Source of the DNA: a virus
Direction: 5' to 3' (one strand)
Length of the DNA stretch: 35,997 nt
UHGV virus genome: UHGV-0350163
The notes beneath the pieces were generated by a model. That model was not told the DNA's origin. It saw only the letters and a program-made list of their open reading frames with translations, and ran no database searches. The translations under genes and the position numbers were made by a program. Position 1 is the first letter of the stretch, and each line of letters starts with the position of its first letter. This document shows positions 7,944 through 35,841 of this stretch, one piece after another.

Positions 7944-10216
7944 CAGTAAGTTCCTCCCGTACCTCTGTTACCGTCCTGAAGGTTGTATTTGTTCACTGCC
8001 TCCGCCACGACCTGACCATCGAGCACCAGTTGTGTGGTGAAATTAATGGGGCTGGCAGGTGGCCCCCAGTGCGTGAGGTATTCCGGCTGGGTGATGCGTC
8101 CGGGTTGTGTTGATGCCGGTTCAGGCTTTGTGTTTCCTGCGGCTTTGTTAACCTGCGCCGGTGATGGCAGGGCATCAGCTGCGGCTTTTTTCCTGTCTTC
8201 CTCCCAGCGCCTCAACCATTCTTCGTTTTCGGTGGAATAGCCTTCCCCAAACTGCCACCATGGCTGGTATTTTTTGCGGGCGGCGTCGATTTCTTCCTGG
8301 GTGTATCGGGCGCGGATGCGTTTCCAGCGTTCTTCGCTTCCTTCGACGGCGGCGTCTTCTTCCGGGCTGGTTGCGGTGGCCAGTGCCGTAACAGTGCCAC
8401 CTAAAGAAAGCAGGCCACCGGCAATACCGGGGAATTTAAATCCTTTGCCTTTTTTGACCGTGTTTTCAATTACATCACCAACAACCTCGCCAGCCTTGCC
8501 ACCGGGTTTACCCCCGGTCAGGATTTTGATCCCGGCCCATGTCAGAGCCGCTGCGGTCATCGCTTCAATTGCGGTCGTAGCACCCACCACTGCCGTGGTC
8601 AGCCCCGGAAACTTTTCACCCGCCCAGCTTATGGCATCGGCCACAGTACCGGACGCATCAGCCAGCTTTTTCACGCTGTCCATTTGTGAAAATTCAAGCG
8701 TGTTTTTAGCCTGTTCGGTTTTAAAATCATTGAGGCCGGATATGAATCTGAAATCAACATCCCCCGCGCGCTGGCCTTCCGGCAGGGTACGTTGCTGATT
8801 AATCGCGTCTTCAACCTTCTTACGGTATTCCGGGTTGTTACGGTAGGCTAACAACGCCATCAACGCCTGACGGTCTGCAACCAGTTTCCCGACACCAAAG
8901 CCTTCAAGGAGTTTTGCCATCGAATCGTAAACAGCCGTCTGTTCACCTTTATCCCGGGCAGATGACAGTTTCTTTTGCAACTCCTGATAGCGTTTATCGT
9001 TGGCAACGATTTTATCTATCAGGCTGGAAAGCGCGTCTATCGGATCCAGTCCATGCTTGCGCGCTTCAGTCAGCGTACCTGAAAAATCAATCCCTTTACC
9101 GTTGTAATCAATGCTCTTTGCCGCAGTTTCAATATCATGGCTGGTCAGTTTAGCCAGCAGGTTAACCACGTTATTCCCTGCTTCATCACTGCTACCAGCC
9201 GTGATCGCGGCGGCTTCATTCAGCGCAAGAATCTTGACGAAATCATCCTTGCCTTTCATTCCCGCAGCTGACGCAGAACCCATTTGTTGGGATAACCAGC
9301 GGGCCATATCGTTCAGTTCAAAGCTGCCTTCTTTTCCTGCCGCAATCGCCATATTCAGGACAGTGGAAATATCTTCATCCTGGAATCCAAAGGTCTTTTT
9401 GCCCTTAAGCATCACATTAGCCAGGTCTGTCGCTGATGCACCAGAAGCCGTGGCGTATTTCATCAGTTCAGGTAACCACTTGCTGGCTGTGTCAAATGAA
9501 ATACCGCCATCTTTCAGCAGGGCATCCAGTGTTTCGGCTGCATCCTCTTTTGTGCCGCCACCATAGGTCACCGCGTTACGGATGCTGCTTTTCATCTGCT
9601 CAAGACCGGCTTTGCGCCCCTCCAGCCCGCCATCACTGAAGGCGGTATTGGCCATCATTGCCAGCTGGCGTTCGTAGCTCATCTGCTTTTTGACCGGCTG
9701 CGCCATAATGGCAGCACCTGCCGCGATACCACCACCTATTGTCACGGCATTCCCGCCAAATGCAGCCGCACGCGCAAAACGCCCCCGTTCGGGGATAACA
9801 GGCGTTTTCGCCATCTTCATCTGAGCCTGAGTAACGCCATCCAGTTCACGCTTGAGTGCCCGGGCTTTTTCCCGGGTGGCCTGCATGGCGCGCTCCTGCT
9901 CCTGCGCAGATTCAAAACCGGCACGGGCCAGACGGTTATAGCTGGCAACCGTCTGATAAATTTCACGCCGGATTTCACGTTCTGCACGAATACCGAGCGT
10001 TTCCCGGGCACGGGCGGCACGCTGTATCTCTTTTGCCGCCTTTTTCGTGCTGTTAACGCTTTCCTGCCCGGTACGCGTCTGCTCTGCGCCTGCCTTCCGG
10101 GTTGCCTTTGTTACACCTTCGGTGGCTTTGATAACCTGTTTTTGTCCCTTTTCCAGAACCTGCGAGGCTTCGTCCTTCGCAGTCAGGGTCATGCCAACTT
10201 TGAAATTACCGGCCAT
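7943..10216 (-). CDS. Tail tape measure protein
   Basis: 757 aa, Ala/Gly/Lys-rich with long coiled-coil-like N-terminal part; between chaperone and N as in myophage tail modules. RBS AAGG upstream of ATG at 10216. Confidence 0.85.
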   Translation of the reverse strand: MAGNFKVGMTLTAKDEASQVLEKGQKQVIKATEGVTKATRKAGAEQTRTGQESVNSTKKAAKEIQRAARARETLGIRAEREIRREIYQTVASYNRLARAGFESAQEQERAMQATREKARALKRELDGVTQAQMKMAKTPVIPERGRFARAAAFGGNAVTIGGGIAAGAAIMAQPVKKQMSYERQLAMMANTAFSDGGLEGRKAGLEQMKSSIRNAVTYGGGTKEDAAETLDALLKDGGISFDTASKWLPELMKYATASGASATDLANVMLKGKKTFGFQDEDISTVLNMAIAAGKEGSFELNDMARWLSQQMGSASAAGMKGKDDFVKILALNEAAAITAGSSDEAGNNVVNLLAKLTSHDIETAAKSIDYNGKGIDFSGTLTEARKHGLDPIDALSSLIDKIVANDKRYQELQKKLSSARDKGEQTAVYDSMAKLLEGFGVGKLVADRQALMALLAYRNNPEYRKKVEDAINQQRTLPEGQRAGDVDFRFISGLNDFKTEQAKNTLEFSQMDSVKKLADASGTVADAISWAGEKFPGLTTAVVGATTAIEAMTAAALTWAGIKILTGGKPGGKAGEVVGDVIENTVKKGKGFKFPGIAGGLLSLGGTVTALATATSPEEDAAVEGSEERWKRIRARYTQEEIDAARKKYQPWWQFGEGYSTENEEWLRRWEEDRKKAAADALPSPAQVNKAAGNTKPEPASTQPGRITQPEYLTHWGPPASPINFTTQLVLDGQVVAEAVNKYNLQDGNRGTGGTY

Positions 10217-27594: not shown

Positions 27595-27609
27595 CTGGCA
27601 CCTCCTTTA

Positions 27610-27783
27610 CATACCGTGATTTTTCCTGCGGTTTTGCGCCGCGCTGGGCTTTTTGCAACAGCTGTGCAACATCACCCCGCAACACCCCGTCAACCTCACT
27701 CGTCTGTTACTAATCCTCAACCATCGCCAGACCCCAACACCGTTTCTGCGAGCTAACAGAATTTTTGCCTTACGGTTTTTCAT
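27610..27783 (-). CDS. Small basic protein, paralogue B (58 aa), not in ORF track
   Basis: Hand-translated: MKNRKAKILLARRNGVGVWRWLRISNRRVRLTGCCGVMLHSCCKKPSAAQNRRKNHGM. ATG overlaps the stop of paralogue A (ATGA). Confidence 0.4.
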
Positions 27784-27956
27784 CGTACTGCGTACCCTTT
27801 CTTCCGCCTGTTCTGTGACGCAGTAGGCTTACGCTTTGCGGCAAAAGCCACCTGACCAAATGGATGGAGTACCGCTATCTTATGGTTGCTAATAACCAGC
27901 TCCACCACACGCACAGGCCGCTGTAAAAGAAGTCGTTTTGCTTTACGGTTTTTCAT
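27783..27956 (-). CDS. Small basic protein, paralogue A (58 aa), not in ORF track
   Basis: Hand-translated: MKNRKAKRLLLQRPVRVVELVISNHKIAVLHPFGQVAFAAKRKPTASQNRRKKGYAVR. AGGAG 9 nt upstream of ATG. First 24 nt nearly identical to paralogue B. Confidence 0.4.
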
Positions 27957-27960
27957 CGTT

Positions 27961-30666: not shown

Positions 30667-30882
30667 TTAATGTGTGTTATGTGCGCGAGGCGCAACGTTT
30701 TCAGAAAAAAGATTCACGCCGTTATAGTCATTTCTAAGCGTTTCCTTGATAACATCATGTAATCCTGTTGCCACCTGAAGCTCCCTTTTGGAAGTGCCAT
30801 CCTTCGAATAACTCCCTGTAATCCGGGTAAGAGTCGCGCCTTTTTCATTGGTATAGATAATTACTTCTAATTTAACCGCCAT
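30667..30882 (-). CDS. Hypothetical protein
   Basis: 71 aa ORF with GAGAGGAAA RBS. Confidence 0.45.
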   Translation of the reverse strand: MAVKLEVIIYTNEKGATLTRITGSYSKDGTSKRELQVATGLHDVIKETLRNDYNGVNLFSENVAPRAHNTH

Positions 30883-30894
30883 TCTGATTTCCTC

Positions 30895-31122
30895 TCATTG
30901 CCATACGACGGTACAGCCGTCGATACAGGACGTTTTAACCACGCGGCGCAGGCCGCTGAATGTCTGAACGATTTCCGTTACCGGCCATACAGGACCACCC
31001 ACAGGCGGGCAGGCATAAACCACAGGTAAACGGTGATGCTGCCCCGTTACGCGACCGCCAGTGGTATGGATAGCCACACGGGCACGGGAACGGACGGCAT
31101 TAATGGCCTGCTTTTCCATCAT
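30895..31122 (-). CDS. Hypothetical protein (start MMEKQ or MENK)
   Basis: Track ORF 30895..31212 trimmed to internal start; GGAGAA sits 5 nt upstream of ATG 31122. Confidence 0.4.
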   Translation of the reverse strand: MMEKQAINAVRSRARVAIHTTGGRVTGQHHRLPVVYACPPVGGPVWPVTEIVQTFSGLRRVVKTSCIDGCTVVWQ

Positions 31123-31133
31123 TTTGTTCTCCA

Positions 31134-31152
31134 TCAGTGAATTAACATTTCT
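31134..31152. repeat. 19-bp perfect direct repeat, copy 1 (TCAGTGAATTAACATTTCT)
   Basis: Identical to 31507-31525; lies between the inserted 110-aa gene and the next gene. Confidence 0.9.
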
Positions 31153-31160
31153 CTGCTGTA

Positions 31161-31493
31161 TTATCTGAGCGTAAACGCCAGTCGGGGCTGATACCGGGGC
31201 AGGTGGGCACACATGCGTGCAAGGCGGTAAGCCCGACGAAACCCCTGCAAAGTCTGCTCAAAAGGAATAATCATTAATCGCGCACAGCATTCATCAACAT
31301 CCCAGTCGTCGCTGGTATTTCCGGTTCCATTGATTTCCCGTTCGCGGGAATATAAATCAATACGCAGTTCACCCGGCACGAAGCAATCAACAAACGGAAT
31401 AATTTCACCGGGGGTTCCATTAAAATAAATACAACCATTACGACCGATATTCCGTAGTGCTTTAATTTCTTTTTTTACGGCAATCTGTTCCAT
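31161..31493 (-). CDS. Hypothetical protein (110 aa) bracketed by the 19-bp direct repeats
   Basis: ORF with AAGG/AGGT RBS; occupies the segment between the two repeat copies. Confidence 0.55.
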   Translation of the reverse strand: MEQIAVKKEIKALRNIGRNGCIYFNGTPGEIIPFVDCFVPGELRIDLYSREREINGTGNTSDDWDVDECCARLMIIPFEQTLQGFRRAYRLARMCAHLPRYQPRLAFTLR

Positions 31494-31506
31494 ACCTGAC
31501 CTTTAC

Positions 31507-31525
31507 TCAGTGAATTAACATTTCT
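31507..31525. repeat. 19-bp perfect direct repeat, copy 2 (encodes the last codons and stop of B)
   Basis: Identical to 31134-31152. Confidence 0.9.
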
Positions 31526-32400
31526 GCGAATTTATCTATGGCCTGCACACTGACCGGCGCATCGCTGATATCGCAAATCCGGTACACACCGCGCGCCAGT
31601 TTGAACAGGCGGCGGGTATTACCCAGCGAGCGCGCGTAAAGCGCCTCGCTGATTTCCGGTTCTGCTGCTTCCGGCATCAGCCCGGTGGCTATCTGGTTAA
31701 AATCTTCCTGCGCCAGCGTGTCGCCCAGGTTAAGCGCCAGCGCCACGCGGCTGTATAACTGCGCAAATTCACCACGACGCCCCTTGAGATTAATCAGAAG
31801 ACGAGGCATACCCGCCAGGACAACCCCGATACCCGCTTTATCATGCAGACGGCGCAGAACCTCCAGTGCGCGATAGGGGAGCAGTTCAGCTTCGTCCACC
31901 ATCAGCAGACGACCGGAATCACGCAGTTCGCGCACACAGGCATCAATCAGTTCGTGAATGTTGCCGCGAACCTTTACCCCCAGCTGGCGGCACAACTCCT
32001 CAAGCAGTGTCCTGGCTGTATAGCCCGGGTCAGCCTCAATCAGGACCGCATCCCGGTTTCTGGCTGCGTATTCACGCAGAATCATTGTTTTGCCAAGACC
32101 AGCTGCGCCATACAGTACACAGATTTCACATTCCAGGTGAGCGTAGGCCAGCACCTCCAGTCCTTTGGCAGCCATACCGGTGGCAACAAATTTCGCTTTA
32201 ATACGGCGGCTGTTTTCCTTTTCCCGCTCACGGGTCACAAAGGCAGAAATGCGTTCTTCAATATCAGCCATATCGCCCTGATATTTACCCTGTAAATACT
32301 GGTTGATAACGGCGCTGCTACGACCAATAGCACGGGCGACGTGGGTCTGCGTATAGCCGCGACGGGCCATTACGTCATTTAATTGCGTAATTAAACTCAT
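31507..32400 (-). CDS. B: Transposition ATPase B (MuB-like, AAA+)
   Basis: 297 aa; N-terminal HTH-like region, Walker A (GAAGLGKT) and Walker B-like (LLMVDEAE); directly downstream of the transposase. Confidence 0.9.
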   Translation of the reverse strand: MSLITQLNDVMARRGYTQTHVARAIGRSSAVINQYLQGKYQGDMADIEERISAFVTREREKENSRRIKAKFVATGMAAKGLEVLAYAHLECEICVLYGAAGLGKTMILREYAARNRDAVLIEADPGYTARTLLEELCRQLGVKVRGNIHELIDACVRELRDSGRLLMVDEAELLPYRALEVLRRLHDKAGIGVVLAGMPRLLINLKGRRGEFAQLYSRVALALNLGDTLAQEDFNQIATGLMPEAAEPEISEALYARSLGNTRRLFKLARGVYRICDISDAPVSVQAIDKFAEMLIH

Positions 32401-32418: not shown

Positions 32419-34461
32419 TTAACGGTTGTTTGTGCCGTTTTTCTTTAAATTGCGCTCGCGTTCAGATGCGAATAAATAAAGTTCTTCTTTTTCCTTTTTC
32501 TCCGGGCGCTCCAGTCCATATCCCAGATTAAAGTCTGGCTTCTGCGTAATAGCCGGGGTAAGCTCGCGTTTAGCCTCTTCGATTTTCTGCGTGGCCCGTG
32601 CAATGCGGCCCCTGACGCGTTTCTCCAGTTTTTGTTCGATAACTGGTTTAGCGAAGGCATCAACCTTGTTACCGTTCCAGATGGCATCGCAGATATAAGA
32701 GCCATCAGCCCGCCGGACAATGACGCTGTTTGCATCATGAATATCGTAACTGACCCTGACTTCATTCCCGTGCTCTGCGGCCAGATCATATGAGTAATAA
32801 ATATTGTTGAATAACTGAATTTCCCCGCGAAATGTTTTGCGCGTCACTTCCGGTCTGAACATTTCATGCAGTTCTTCCGGCGACAGGAAATCAATTTCAA
32901 CATTCTGCTCTTTTATCAGTTTCCGGCGATACGCTGCCGGGCTGTAATATTCGCCATCCTCTTTGCGGGGAAGGCTGCTGTGTGGCCGGTTGTTATAGCG
33001 TCTGACCTCCAGCTCTATGGCCGCCATCAGTTGCTCAAAGGTGGGGATTTCATCCCTCGCCTTAACCTGCCGTTTTGTCAGTTCTTTCCCTTTGTGGGTG
33101 GCCTTAATGGCCGACTGCATAATCCGTTGCTGCATCATTACGGTTTCCTTGTCTGCATCCTTTGCGCAGTACGTCTGGAAACTCAGTGCCACGTCTTTGG
33201 GTATTCCTTTGTTTGCCCGTTCTATTACCCCGCGCCCCTGCGGGTTACCCGGTATCCCCGTGTGATGCTCCACACCCAGCCGGGGCAGAATCCCGGTAAT
33301 ATCGGCATCAAGCACCCGGTTTTTTTCGCCGCCCCCGTTATCGGAATAATAAATCAGCGGTATCCCGTGCTGTGCCATGCCGTAACGCAACGCATCAGCA
33401 ACGGCTATCACGTTTTCCGACAGGGACAGTGACCAGCCCACAACAAAGCGCTGCCCCGCATCCATAACCAGCGTCACTTCTGGCCGGAAAATATTGCCGG
33501 TCAGGGGGTTAAACGCGGTCATTTTCATACAGTGACCATCCCCGACCCATACCGCATTAACCGGTAATGATGTCCACTCGCGCCGCACAAAGGGATTGAG
33601 CGAACGCCAGGCTGAACCTGTGGAGCGGAAACGCTCCTTAACAATCACCGGGACGCTGCTTAACACTCGTCTTACTGCGTGAACTGAAGGCAGTGCCGCC
33701 AGCATTCCCGCATCATTCGCGTGTTTCTCATGCCACCAGGCTGAAAACTCGCGATAAGCGTATTCAACGGTCGGGCGCTTCCATGAGCGATAGAACATAA
33801 AGAAATCGCTCAGCCACCAGACCTGCTCCCACGGAGTTCCCTTATGATGACCGGGAGCCAGTAACGCCAGTAACTGATTGGCATCACCGCGCGCCATCAC
33901 CCAGCTGGAGTACCAGCTATCCAGGCTGCCGGTGCTGACACCGGTTCGCTTTCCCTGACGTGCATTTGCAGTATTCGCTGCTTCGATAATGCGGTCAGGT
34001 AACGCCCCCATGCGCACACCATCAACGATGTGCTTTAACGCGGCCTTCCTGGTCATTCCGGCGTATTCACGCAGTTTATGCACTTCAGTAGCCAGCAATA
34101 TCCGCGCATCAGCAATGGCCTTTTGCTTGTCGGTCAGTGCCTGGACTTCGCGTAATGCCAGTTCCGGGCATTTGACCATCACTTCCAGTTCATCGCGAAC
34201 GGCGACGTTTTTAACTGCCTTCTGCTCAACCACGGCGGGCAGTTGTGCATCTTCCAGGACCTGATGAGTCAGGCGCTTACGTAAAACTTTCTGCGCTTCA
34301 GCGGGCAGGCTGTCGATGTGATACTCGAATGCTTTTGTGCCTTCACGCTTGCGCTTCCATTCCGGGTGCGTCTCTGTGATCCGATTGAGCGTCCATCGCA
34401 CCCCCTGAACTGTACCGGGCAAACGAGGAAGACCGGCCAGCTCATTGGCTGAATAAAACAT
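32419..34461 (-). CDS. A: DDE transposase A (MuA-like)
   Basis: 680 aa; N-terminus (ANELAGLPRLPGTVQGVRW...IDSLPAEAQ) and the central DDE core (WVGDGH...DNGGG) resemble MuA (from memory); ATG overlaps ner stop (TAATG). Confidence 0.9.
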   Translation of the reverse strand: MFYSANELAGLPRLPGTVQGVRWTLNRITETHPEWKRKREGTKAFEYHIDSLPAEAQKVLRKRLTHQVLEDAQLPAVVEQKAVKNVAVRDELEVMVKCPELALREVQALTDKQKAIADARILLATEVHKLREYAGMTRKAALKHIVDGVRMGALPDRIIEAANTANARQGKRTGVSTGSLDSWYSSWVMARGDANQLLALLAPGHHKGTPWEQVWWLSDFFMFYRSWKRPTVEYAYREFSAWWHEKHANDAGMLAALPSVHAVRRVLSSVPVIVKERFRSTGSAWRSLNPFVRREWTSLPVNAVWVGDGHCMKMTAFNPLTGNIFRPEVTLVMDAGQRFVVGWSLSLSENVIAVADALRYGMAQHGIPLIYYSDNGGGEKNRVLDADITGILPRLGVEHHTGIPGNPQGRGVIERANKGIPKDVALSFQTYCAKDADKETVMMQQRIMQSAIKATHKGKELTKRQVKARDEIPTFEQLMAAIELEVRRYNNRPHSSLPRKEDGEYYSPAAYRRKLIKEQNVEIDFLSPEELHEMFRPEVTRKTFRGEIQLFNNIYYSYDLAAEHGNEVRVSYDIHDANSVIVRRADGSYICDAIWNGNKVDAFAKPVIEQKLEKRVRGRIARATQKIEEAKRELTPAITQKPDFNLGYGLERPEKKEKEELYLFASERERNLKKNGTNNR

Positions 34462-34697
34462 TACGCCGCCTTACTGGCATACCGGCTTGGCCAGATCTCC
34501 GCAGGTTCCACACCAATAGCATCGGCTATGATGCGTTCATATTTAGGGCATGAGCGATACAGTGCATTTTTTAAAGAGTCTTTTTTTAGACCAGCGCGTT
34601 CAGAAAGTTCACGCAATGTAAAACCTTTGGTGTGCACAGCGGCAACGATGTACTCGCGGTGCCAGTCTTTGTTCATTACTTCATTTCTAACCATCAT
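34461..34697 (-). CDS. ner: Ner-like DNA-binding regulator
   Basis: Track ORF trimmed to MMVRNEVMNKDWHR...; shares the DWHR...NAL.R..PK.E.IIA.A....P..IWPSRY pattern with Mu Ner (from memory). Confidence 0.75.
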   Translation of the reverse strand: MMVRNEVMNKDWHREYIVAAVHTKGFTLRELSERAGLKKDSLKNALYRSCPKYERIIADAIGVEPAEIWPSRYASKAA

Positions 34698-34714
34698 TAG
34701 GTTACCCTTAAAAA

Positions 34715-34757
34715 TTATCCGTGCGGATAACACCGCCGTGTTATCCCTTCGGATACA
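34715..34757. promoter_or_regulatory. Two palindromic operator-like sites (TTATCCG-TG-CGGATAA at 34715-34730; TTATCC-CTTC-GGATAC at 34741-34757) in the divergent repressor/ner control region
   Basis: Read directly; the region 34698-34879 separates divergent ner (minus) and repressor (plus) genes, where Mu has its operators. Confidence 0.45.
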
Positions 34758-34879
34758 AGTATTGATCCATATGTAGCCCATGTAAAGCAAAAATAACCCT
34801 TTCTTTGTATTTTCTTTTTGATTTTGGTCTTTATGTGGTTTTTGCAATTAAAATCAACTAGTTATAGAGGAAAGAAAAA

Positions 34880-35527
34880 ATGACCAGAAATGATGATGCT
34901 TTTTCTTTTGTCGACCGGGGAAAAGAAAGTTTCAGAGAGCGTTTAGTAAAGCTGATAGGTAATCGCAGTGTCAGAACTGCTGCGAGTGATTGGGGAATCC
35001 CCCCTTCAACCTTAAACAACTACATTCATAAAGGAACTGAGCCTTCTTTTAAAATAGCTTGCCTTATCTCAGATAAAGAGCAAGTGAGCTTAAATTGGCT
35101 CGCTTACGGTAAGGAACCCACCACCAAAGAAGGTTCTCTATCAAATCAAACAGCGCAGCCTTCTCCCGATATTACAAACGAGCTAGTTAACGAGTTATTG
35201 AAAAGAGCGTCCACAGAAGTTAAGGAGCAACTGATAAGTGCAATATGCGATATGGGCATTAAAGGAATCTTGGAACGCCTACAGCAACCAACCAGGCAAA
35301 CTAAGCAGACCGACAGCGACCTGGACGAACAAGAGACTGCCATCAGAAGCCTAAACATCAGGGAATCGCTTAAAGACGCTATTTGCATGGCATTGGCTGG
35401 TAATGAAGAAACTGATAAAGAGATTTTGCGACGCATCGAATCTCGTGCACGGACTGGGTCGCCAGGTGGTGAGACCATTGCCACGCTGGAGCAAGAAACG
35501 AAACCTGTAAGCAAAAAACCAGCATGA
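34880..35527 (+). CDS. Prophage repressor, CI-like with XRE-type HTH
   Basis: 215 aa; N-terminal HTH (SVRTAASDWGIPPSTLNNYIHKG...LNWLAYG); only plus-strand gene, divergent from ner. No S24 peptidase-like C-terminal domain recognised. Confidence 0.75.
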   Translation: MTRNDDAFSFVDRGKESFRERLVKLIGNRSVRTAASDWGIPPSTLNNYIHKGTEPSFKIACLISDKEQVSLNWLAYGKEPTTKEGSLSNQTAQPSPDITNELVNELLKRASTEVKEQLISAICDMGIKGILERLQQPTRQTKQTDSDLDEQETAIRSLNIRESLKDAICMALAGNEETDKEILRRIESRARTGSPGGETIATLEQETKPVSKKPA

Positions 35528-35706
35528 ACGCCTACTACTTGGTAGGCGTATGCTGCCAACTAACTAGCGACATCCAACAAAACCAATACCGACAACTGAT
35601 AAGAAAGGAATAAATCAGACAAGATTAGAACGGGCTTTAGAATCTTTTAAACGAGTTTTAAAATCTTTTAAAAGGAGATCGCTTTCTTACACCACCAGAT
35701 CAAAAG

Positions 35707-35841
35707 CGCCCAGAATAAAGCGTAAAAAAAGGCACTTTTGGTCATTTCTCACAAATCCGCCCAGAATCACACTAAATCACCATACCCCGCGCCACACAAG
35801 GCTTGCAGGTTCTACCAGGCTGCACGAACTCCGCCCAGAAT
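35707..35841 (+). repeat. Three direct copies of CGCCCAGAAT (35707-35716, 35758-35767, 35832-35841); candidate left-end transposase binding sites
   Basis: Read directly; spacing 51 and 74 bp; same decamer occurs inverted at the other end (148-157). Confidence 0.55.

Follow-up and report, generated by a model that had tools for sequence, protein, structure and literature searches.

A probable recombination scar flanks an optional early gene between B and kil in Mu-like prophages of Escherichia coli

The early operon of a Mu-type transposable prophage carries, between the transposition gene B and a homolog of kil, a gene for a 110-aa protein that is bracketed by two perfect 19-nt copies of the end of B. 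We consider it probable that an off-register (unequal) recombination event, in which the genomes of two related Mu-like phages took part, left these two copies as its scar. The gene itself is optional (accessory), being present or absent among close relatives whose flanks are intact. Comparison with its homologs indicates that it is not a foreign insertion but an allele of an old, optional, position-specific family of Mu-like early genes.

The window (the entire 35,997-nt stretch of DNA analyzed here) holds a Mu-type transposable prophage read backwards, and the open reading frame (ORF) map places the genes of the B/110-aa/kil region all on the minus strand (Table 1). This is the early operon of a Mu-type transposable phage, in which c, ner, A, and B are followed by small early genes including kil; the same gene order is found in phage Mu (AF083977), and the transposase A of relatives has Mu-transpos_C and HTH_Tnp_Mu_1 domains. 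The inserted gene has a GC content of 46.8%, compared with 54.6% in B and 56.2% in kil. Neither a sigma-70-like promoter nor an intrinsic terminator was detected on the gene strand between positions 31134 and 31525, and the 110-aa gene would be read within the early operon after A and B, with no promoter or terminator of its own. Elsewhere in the window, two tandem ORFs of 58 aa (27780-27956 and 27607-27783, minus strand) share an ATGA stop/start overlap; both begin with MKNRKAK, corresponding to a 24-nt direct repeat (27763-27786 and 27936-27959; 23 of 24 positions identical, 173 nt apart), and finish with ..QNRRK.., with diverged middles, a pattern suggestive of the tandem duplication of one small early gene. 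Near the repressor end (35702-35841) there are three direct copies of the motif (A)AANNCGCCCAGAAT, and near the opposite end of the window (about 141-160) there is an inverted copy, ATTCTGGGCG; these plausibly represent binding sites for the transposase at the ends of the prophage.

Table 1. Features of the early region, with coordinates in the 35,997-nt window
Feature	Coordinates	Strand	Basis or remarks
Repressor	34880-35527	+	
ner-like gene	34461-34847	-	
Transposase A	32419-34461	-	
Transposition ATPase B, 297 aa, ending ..FAEMLIH-stop	31507-32400	-	Pfam AAA_22, E 9e-23; phrog_296 "DNA transposition protein," E 1e-103
Repeat copy within B	31507-31525	-	Last 5 codons and stop (E M L I H stop) plus one base before
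13-nt spacer gtaaaggtcaggt with AAGG ribosome-binding site of the 110-aa gene	31494-31506	-	
110-aa early gene, 12.8 kDa, pI 8.3	31161-31493	-	ORF map
8-nt tail tacagcag, from the TAA of the 110-aa gene to the repeat	31153-31160	-	
Noncoding repeat copy, probable B-tail fossil joined to the kil leader	31134-31152	-	Sequence and junction alignment
Microhomology AGAAAT (gene strand), crossover point as mapped by alignment	31147-31152	-	E. coli-type versus Salmonella-type right-junction alignment
kil homolog	30895-31134 (longest form); probable start 31122	-	phrog_2679
phrog_7438 gene, then DUF3164 protein gene	Downstream of kil	-	

As the original prediction held, the two copies of the repeat TCAGTGAATTAACATTTCT (31134-31152 and 31507-31525; AGAAATGTTAATTCACTGA when read on the gene strand) are identical, and the upstream one supplies the last codons and stop of B (..EMLIH-stop). 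Their start-to-start distance is 373 nt. The repeat is exactly 19 nt long in the window, where the bases bordering the two copies differ on both sides, and the identity reaches 22 nt (CGCAGAAAT..) in three other alleles (L002, L030, and L017). B alleles that are followed by quite different sequence also terminate in EMLIH-stop, and the repeat sequence therefore belongs to B; alleles of B with an overall identity of only about 70% have the same last 13 to 18 nt. The downstream copy starts 8 nt past the TAA of the 110-aa ORF. No notable structured RNA or translational-coupling hairpin was predicted around either copy (z-scores of -0.35 to +0.21).

The gene downstream of the repeat is a homolog of kil, which has a host-killing function. 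It matches phrog_2679 ("Kil protein for bacterial septation inhibition") over its full length with an E value of 5e-38; a Pfam search returned no match for it, and its counterpart in the Enterobacter ludwigii locus L034 carries PF26843 (Kil_protein). The TGA of the downstream repeat copy, followed by TGGAGAACAAAATGATGG, overlaps an ATG (31134-31132) that is in frame with kil and begins its longest form. The TGATG stop/start overlap that had been noted at this point is thus present in the sequence, but it is probably incidental, because three observations favor the ATG at 31122, 12 nt downstream, as the probable start: a Shine-Dalgarno GGAG (31132-31129) lies 6 nt ahead of it, PGAP picks the equivalent start in a 99.4% identical E. 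coli prophage (L005), and the Salmonella-type kil has its start at the aligned position. On the other side of kil, the slot before the phrog_7438 gene (30667-30882 to kil) is variable and has 0, 1, or 2 extra ORFs of 63 to 83 aa in L002, L003, and L004.

The distribution of the 110-aa gene was examined by a megablast search of 5,426 complete E. coli genomes, 58 of which have the region. The 354-bp interior of the 373-bp unit is found in 10 of the 58, as one copy per genome and always in the same slot. A 120-nt probe spanning an empty junction is unbroken in 48 (including enteropathogenic E. coli [EPEC] E2348/69) and split into two pieces 373 bp apart in 9, and in the remaining genome the region is disrupted by IS1. 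In the empty loci L001, L003, and L004, B abuts kil with a single 19-mer (..GCAGAAATGTTAATTCACTGAtggag..; the junction reads ..ttcgc(A/G)GAAATGTTAATTCACTGAtggagaac..). When IMG/VR was scanned for exact matches to the B tail, 13 empty and 5 filled junctions were recovered, and in phage Mu (AF083977) B is followed by kil after 18 nt with nothing between them. The search among relatives for B directly abutting the downstream gene, which had been suggested as a check, thus found this to be the majority state. The distribution bears out both the proposal that B was ancestrally coupled directly to the downstream gene and the proposal that a cassette of ~355 bp entered with duplication of the 3' end of B; the arrangement varies among relatives, and the copies in the window are identical. 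Searches of 50,697 phage records (megablast and tblastn) recovered no named phage relative, only weak matches of the B gene to Mu-like phages of Klebsiella and Pseudomonas. Two 249-kb E. coli records classed as plasmids (NZ_OZ547097.1 and NZ_OZ547049.1) contain a gene-bearing Mu-like prophage (99.4% identical over 1.9 kb) and are cases of a transposable prophage resident on a plasmid. In E. coli RM9088 (NZ_CP042298.1), an IS1A lies near the junction of B and the 110-aa gene, and the left part of the junction probe is absent.

A word-indexed search with the 110-aa protein recovered eight close clusters only, from E. coli and Salmonella, and an exhaustive profile search of 1.84 billion representatives recovered 21 proteins of 86 to 111 aa (one extra hit, a 573-aa repetitive protein, was discarded). 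The family aligns over its full length, with conserved residues E9, D46, Y48, W64 (within DWDVDE), F78, and F85-RRAYRLAR and with the motifs D-x-Y-S, DWDVDE, and FRRAYRLAR. In all six contexts inspected (Enterobacter ludwigii L034; Salmonella L035, L036, and L039; Providencia stuartii L037; and Vibrio vulnificus L040), the gene is the first ORF after Mu B, and the genes that follow it vary; it likewise comes first after B in the closer Salmonella and E. coli alleles. This constant position in every context points to an old, position-specific, optional early gene. Pairwise dN/dS values of 0.09 to 0.5, mostly 0.1 to 0.2, show purifying selection on the gene and argue that it encodes a real, selected protein. 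A scan of GTDB (one genome per species) with the conserved motif of the gene gave a single chance match in an unrelated metagenome-assembled genome. In one IMG/VR contig (L027; IMGVR_UViG_2529292908_000014), the gene at about 8909-9240 has A6 in place of A7 near its 5' end and is frameshifted, which makes it either a pseudogene or a homopolymer sequencing error.

The evidence on how the duplication arose comes from the Salmonella-type relatives (L006 to L010 and L042), which have the order B'-gene-kil' with TAAtgcagcgGAGAAATcatcATG and without any duplication; their B' is 306 or 311 aa long. The sequence after the stop of their gene reads TAAtgcagcgGAGAAATcatcATGgaaaaa.., in which GGAG is the Shine-Dalgarno sequence of kil', and an empty site of the same type (L019) reads ..CACTGAgtccgggtaattatttaattcGGAGAATcttttATG. 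On the left, the spacer gtaaaggtcaggt of the window is homologous to the gtaagga.. spacer of these relatives. On the right, the E. coli type is homologous to the Salmonella type through the gene, its TAA, and the following tgcagcgN (the tacagcag tail of the window corresponding to tgcagcgg or tgcagcga) up to and including AGAAAT. Past AGAAAT, the E. coli type continues as GTTAATTCACTGAtggag.., which is the continuation of the B tail in the empty genome (..ttcGCAGAAAT followed by GTTAATTCACTGAtggag), and homology with the B tail sets in at (GC)AGAAAT. The partners share AGAAAT perfectly and 8 of the 9 positions of GC(G/C)AGAAAT. This alignment would place the right joint at a microhomology of 6 to 9 nt (GCNAGAAAT) between the post-gene spacer and the last codons of B. 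Because the unduplicated Salmonella-type sequence allows the joint to be mapped to a microhomology, the repeat reads as the scar of an offset crossover and not as a target-site duplication. DNA identity between the E. coli and Salmonella types is 78% for the gene, about 70% for B, and about 67% for kil; the gene is more alike than its flanks, which fits a transfer after the two lineages had split. No donor nearly identical to the E. coli-type gene and with an unduplicated TAAtgcagcgGAGAAAT-kil' joint was found among the relatives, and the closest unduplicated alleles are 74 to 79% identical to the E. coli type in protein sequence.

We propose the following course of events. The recipient would have had B abutting kil, as in Mu and most of the E. 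coli relatives, and the donor would already have had a gene of roughly 110 codons between its own B and kil with no duplication, like the present Salmonella-type phages. A single off-register crossover or template switch at the microhomology of 6 to 9 nt would have produced the right joint, where the donor spacer past the gene reads GCGGAGAAAT (the Shine-Dalgarno region of the donor kil) and the recipient reads GCAGAAAT within the last codons of B. Beyond the joint, the sequence would be that of the recipient (GTTAATTCACTGA, then TGGAG and kil), and it is because the post-joint sequence came from the recipient that the final 13 nt of B together with the 6-nt microhomology would now appear twice. 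On the left side, the partners would have undergone ordinary homologous exchange at or close to the conserved B tail, whose sequence the two lineages share exactly. The recombinant would have been viable because the joint kept the native leader and ribosome-binding site of kil, and an intact kil leader is what selection would require of a surviving illegitimate recombinant. Parsimony suggests a transfer from the Salmonella type to the E. coli type; the same microhomology would also serve the reverse. Once established, the repeats of 19 to 22 nt would permit precise loss that regenerates the empty junction, and the flanking homology would spread the unit among B alleles. The empty junction must predate the duplication, ancient though the gene family is at this address, because the fusion of a B tail to the kil leader needs a B that directly abuts kil.

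A different account would reverse the polarity, with the filled state ancestral in this E. coli lineage and the empty junctions arising by precise deletion between the repeats of 19 to 22 nt, through replication slippage or short-homology recombination in replicative transposition. The gene family is old and always follows B from Vibrio to Escherichia, and deletion between the repeats would recreate exactly the empty junction that is seen. Several B alleles show both the filled and empty states; the filled L002 and the empty L020 differ at 1 of 893 nt in B (99.9% identity) and at 5 of 330 nt in kil, which makes a gain or loss of the gene recent in this pair. Either gain via flanking homology or deletion between the repeats would fit these two sequences. 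Nevertheless, in the downstream copy a stretch of B coding sequence is joined to the ribosome-binding site of kil, so that a junction of the empty type came earlier, and the unduplicated gene-bearing relatives represent the older filled state. On these two grounds we regard loss as an unlikely origin of the arrangement, with deletion being likely as a later, secondary process.

It is also conceivable, although we think it quite improbable, that the B tail is a recurrent "linker" at a module boundary, across which homologous recombination swaps the downstream content, and that the gene is now a portable cassette. In favor of this, the terminal 13- to 18-nt identity noted above unites B alleles of about 70% identity, the B alleles that precede the cassette are 82 to 99% identical to that of the window, and B-tail fossils have two independent occurrences, one on the downstream side of the gene and the other on its upstream side. 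The second of these is in the Salmonella loci L036 and L039 (3473-3500), in which B' ends with ..KNKSSVH-stop and is followed by noncoding (A/G)T(G/A)TTAATCCACTAA (equivalent to ..MLIH-stop) and then by taaggaattaattATG. This fossil (ATGTTAATCCACTAA) lies directly upstream of the family gene, and the same 15 nt form the genuine end of a 297-aa B (..EMLIH-stop) in L035, which makes it an independent fossil. Short conserved flanks are moreover a recognized route of module exchange in lambdoid phages, according to the introduction of PMC2327257. The boundary sequences mentioned there resemble the present case in that a short gene-boundary sequence common to otherwise diverged relatives flanks an exchangeable unit; the difference is that the end of the B coding sequence fills this role here and that duplication gave rise to the second copy.

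Several observations speak against such a linker. A search for the 19-mer that tolerated up to three mismatches found no third copy at any other gene boundary in the whole window, a difference from the lambdoid boundary sequences, and the conserved tail is more simply due to the conserved C terminus of the protein (F-[AS]-[EK]-M-L-I-[HKN]). Special conservation of the downstream copy was not supported: it has a 29-nt invariant run among filled haplotypes, but kil has comparable runs of 21 to 32 nt and the gene has one of 27 nt, so that no special constraint can be claimed for it. The usual minimum for efficient RecA-dependent exchange is a further objection, 19 nt being at or below it. Two of the observations count in favor of the offset crossover as well, namely, the second fossil of L036 and L039 and the constancy of the downstream copy. 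In L017 and L033, the resident B ends with ..SEMLIK-stop or ..SKMLIK-stop (GAAATGTTAATTAAGTGA or AAAATGTTAATTAAGTGA), and the post-gene copy is still ..GCAGAAATGTTAATTCACTGA, keeping ..CACTGA where the resident B has ..AAGTGA; this unchanged state indicates that the fossil moves together with the gene and kil, whichever B allele is present. Mosaicism extends into the gene, with 5' variants beginning MEQIAVKKEIKAL.. and MEKMALRNEIRAL.. on the same 3' two-thirds (the window versus L011, L017, and L033). Three different spacers occur upstream at the left junction, and the MEKMALRNEIRAL.. variant has two of them. Variable sites are closely spaced in B, in the left spacer, and at the 5' end of the gene and sparse from the middle of the gene through the downstream copy and kil. 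This pattern would fit a right joint that arose once, followed by reshuffling on the left. The three left spacers and the mosaic 5' end suggest that later recombination overwrote part of the original event.

That the repeats are a target-site duplication generated by a small mobile element (a transposon, miniature element, or site-specific cassette) is very improbable. As in such duplications, perfect direct repeats flank an insert that is missing from relatives, and the insert is poorer in GC than its neighbors. However, the unit has no transposase or integrase, and its sole ORF lacks a transposase signature; a search for terminal inverted repeats of the unit found none, just two 8-nt internal inverted repeats; it is single copy and confined to this slot, in 10 of the 5,426 E. 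coli genomes; the Salmonella-type relatives hold the gene in the same slot unduplicated; and the joint has microhomology with a related phage, as recombination predicts. At 19 nt, the duplication would also be atypically long, far exceeding usual target-site duplications. With no inverted termini, transposase, or other copies, insertion of a transposon was ruled out, and an integron-like cassette was likewise rejected. Chance coincidence or an assembly artifact, for which nothing but the small size of the repeat speaks, has a negligible probability, as 0.002 perfect direct pairs of at least 19 nt are expected analytically for the size and composition of the window, shuffled windows had a mean of 0.01 matches (0 of 100 shuffles), and the same pair of copies is seen again in assemblies of independent origin (10 complete E. 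coli genomes, IMG/VR contigs, and NCBI draft genomes).

The offset-crossover reading places the 110-aa gene among the mosaic "novel joints" and morons of tailed phages, which are the subject of the Hendrix/Juhala model. The resemblance lies in an extra gene, of lower GC content than its neighbors, between genes that are adjacent in close relatives, and in recombination between related phages whose surviving joints keep the flanking genes working. In base composition (46.8% versus 54.6% and 56.2%), the gene is also like a classical moron, but it lacks its own promoter and terminator and so is not one. The joint is unusually legible, as the donor type, the recipient type, and the product are all available and the crossover maps to a microhomology of 6 to 9 nt with a 19-nt duplication. 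The prevalent hypothesis for mosaicism is illegitimate or short-homology recombination between related phages followed by a filter on function, with homeologous or short-flank exchange as the alternative (as set out in PMC2327257). The case is also comparable to the semiessential early region of Mu (kil, E5 to E8, and gam), in which small dispensable proteins are encoded downstream of B and next to kil; however, Mu has nothing between B and kil, and its E7 sits four genes further on. Thus, the acquisition of this optional early gene by a Mu-like phage is a known kind of phage gene trading with an unusually readable scar.

A homology search with the 110-aa protein, suggested at the outset as a route to its function, disclosed no family, fold, or defense system: neither the protein nor the family alignment matched any Pfam, PHROG, NCBIfam, PADLOC, or PDB sequence entry, no curated antidefense or defense model or solved structure matched the protein, and a literature search on its RefSeq accessions returned nothing. 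An AlphaFold2 model built from 19 family members is an alpha/beta structure of moderate confidence (pLDDT 71, pTM 0.62), with a predicted helix at residues 2 to 19, a low-confidence loop at 19 to 31, strands at 42 to 46 and 73 to 77, short helices at 47 to 54 and 66 to 71, and a basic amphipathic helix at 82 to 96. A borderline similarity to the uncharacterized E7 protein of Mu (Mu_8; 139 aa; phrog_3690; AF083977 5062-5481, L041) was obtained with hhalign (90% probability and E 1.8e-6 against E7 alone; 82% and E 1.1e-5 profile to profile), in a match spanning 64 to 66 N-terminal columns only. By eye, the C-terminal WRDYRLMAKG of E7 resembles FRRAYRLARL of the family. An hmmscan of the 19 members against the PHROGs, including the Mu E7 family phrog_3690, gave no match, and Mu E5, E6, and E8 showed no similarity to the family.

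The original prediction had placed the gene in a slot where Mu carries host-interference genes. This fits the surroundings, with kil adjacent and Mu E6/Mup07 being gnarl2, an accessory gene that alters host lipopolysaccharide/O antigen (PMC12373910), and says nothing specific about the protein. From these neighbors alone, by contextual analogy, a role as an accessory factor may be supposed; our guess would be a small protein-binding factor that, in early lytic growth, is directed against a host function or defense or modulates B-dependent transposition. It is a doubtful extension of this that the family would be an unrecognized early effector (in counterdefense, host takeover, or modulation of MuB) and that the two copies of the B tail make it a self-contained shuttling cassette. 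Such a cassette could be precisely lost again via short-homology recombination during replicative transposition.

The locus reveals no new kind of genetic element. As we interpret it, it offers a textbook-quality case of phage mosaicism at nucleotide resolution, in which the recipient, donor-type, and product states are all visible and in which a joint at a microhomology of 6 to 9 nt would by chance have left the ribosome-binding site of the next gene intact. In addition, the locus defines a small, hitherto unannotated protein family with a fixed address, the first position after B in enterobacterial and Vibrio Mu-like prophages. The neighboring Mu gene E6/Mup07 has recently been given an accessory role as gnarl2 (PMC12373910), and the fixed address right after B makes it reasonable to include the family when phage accessory genes are screened.
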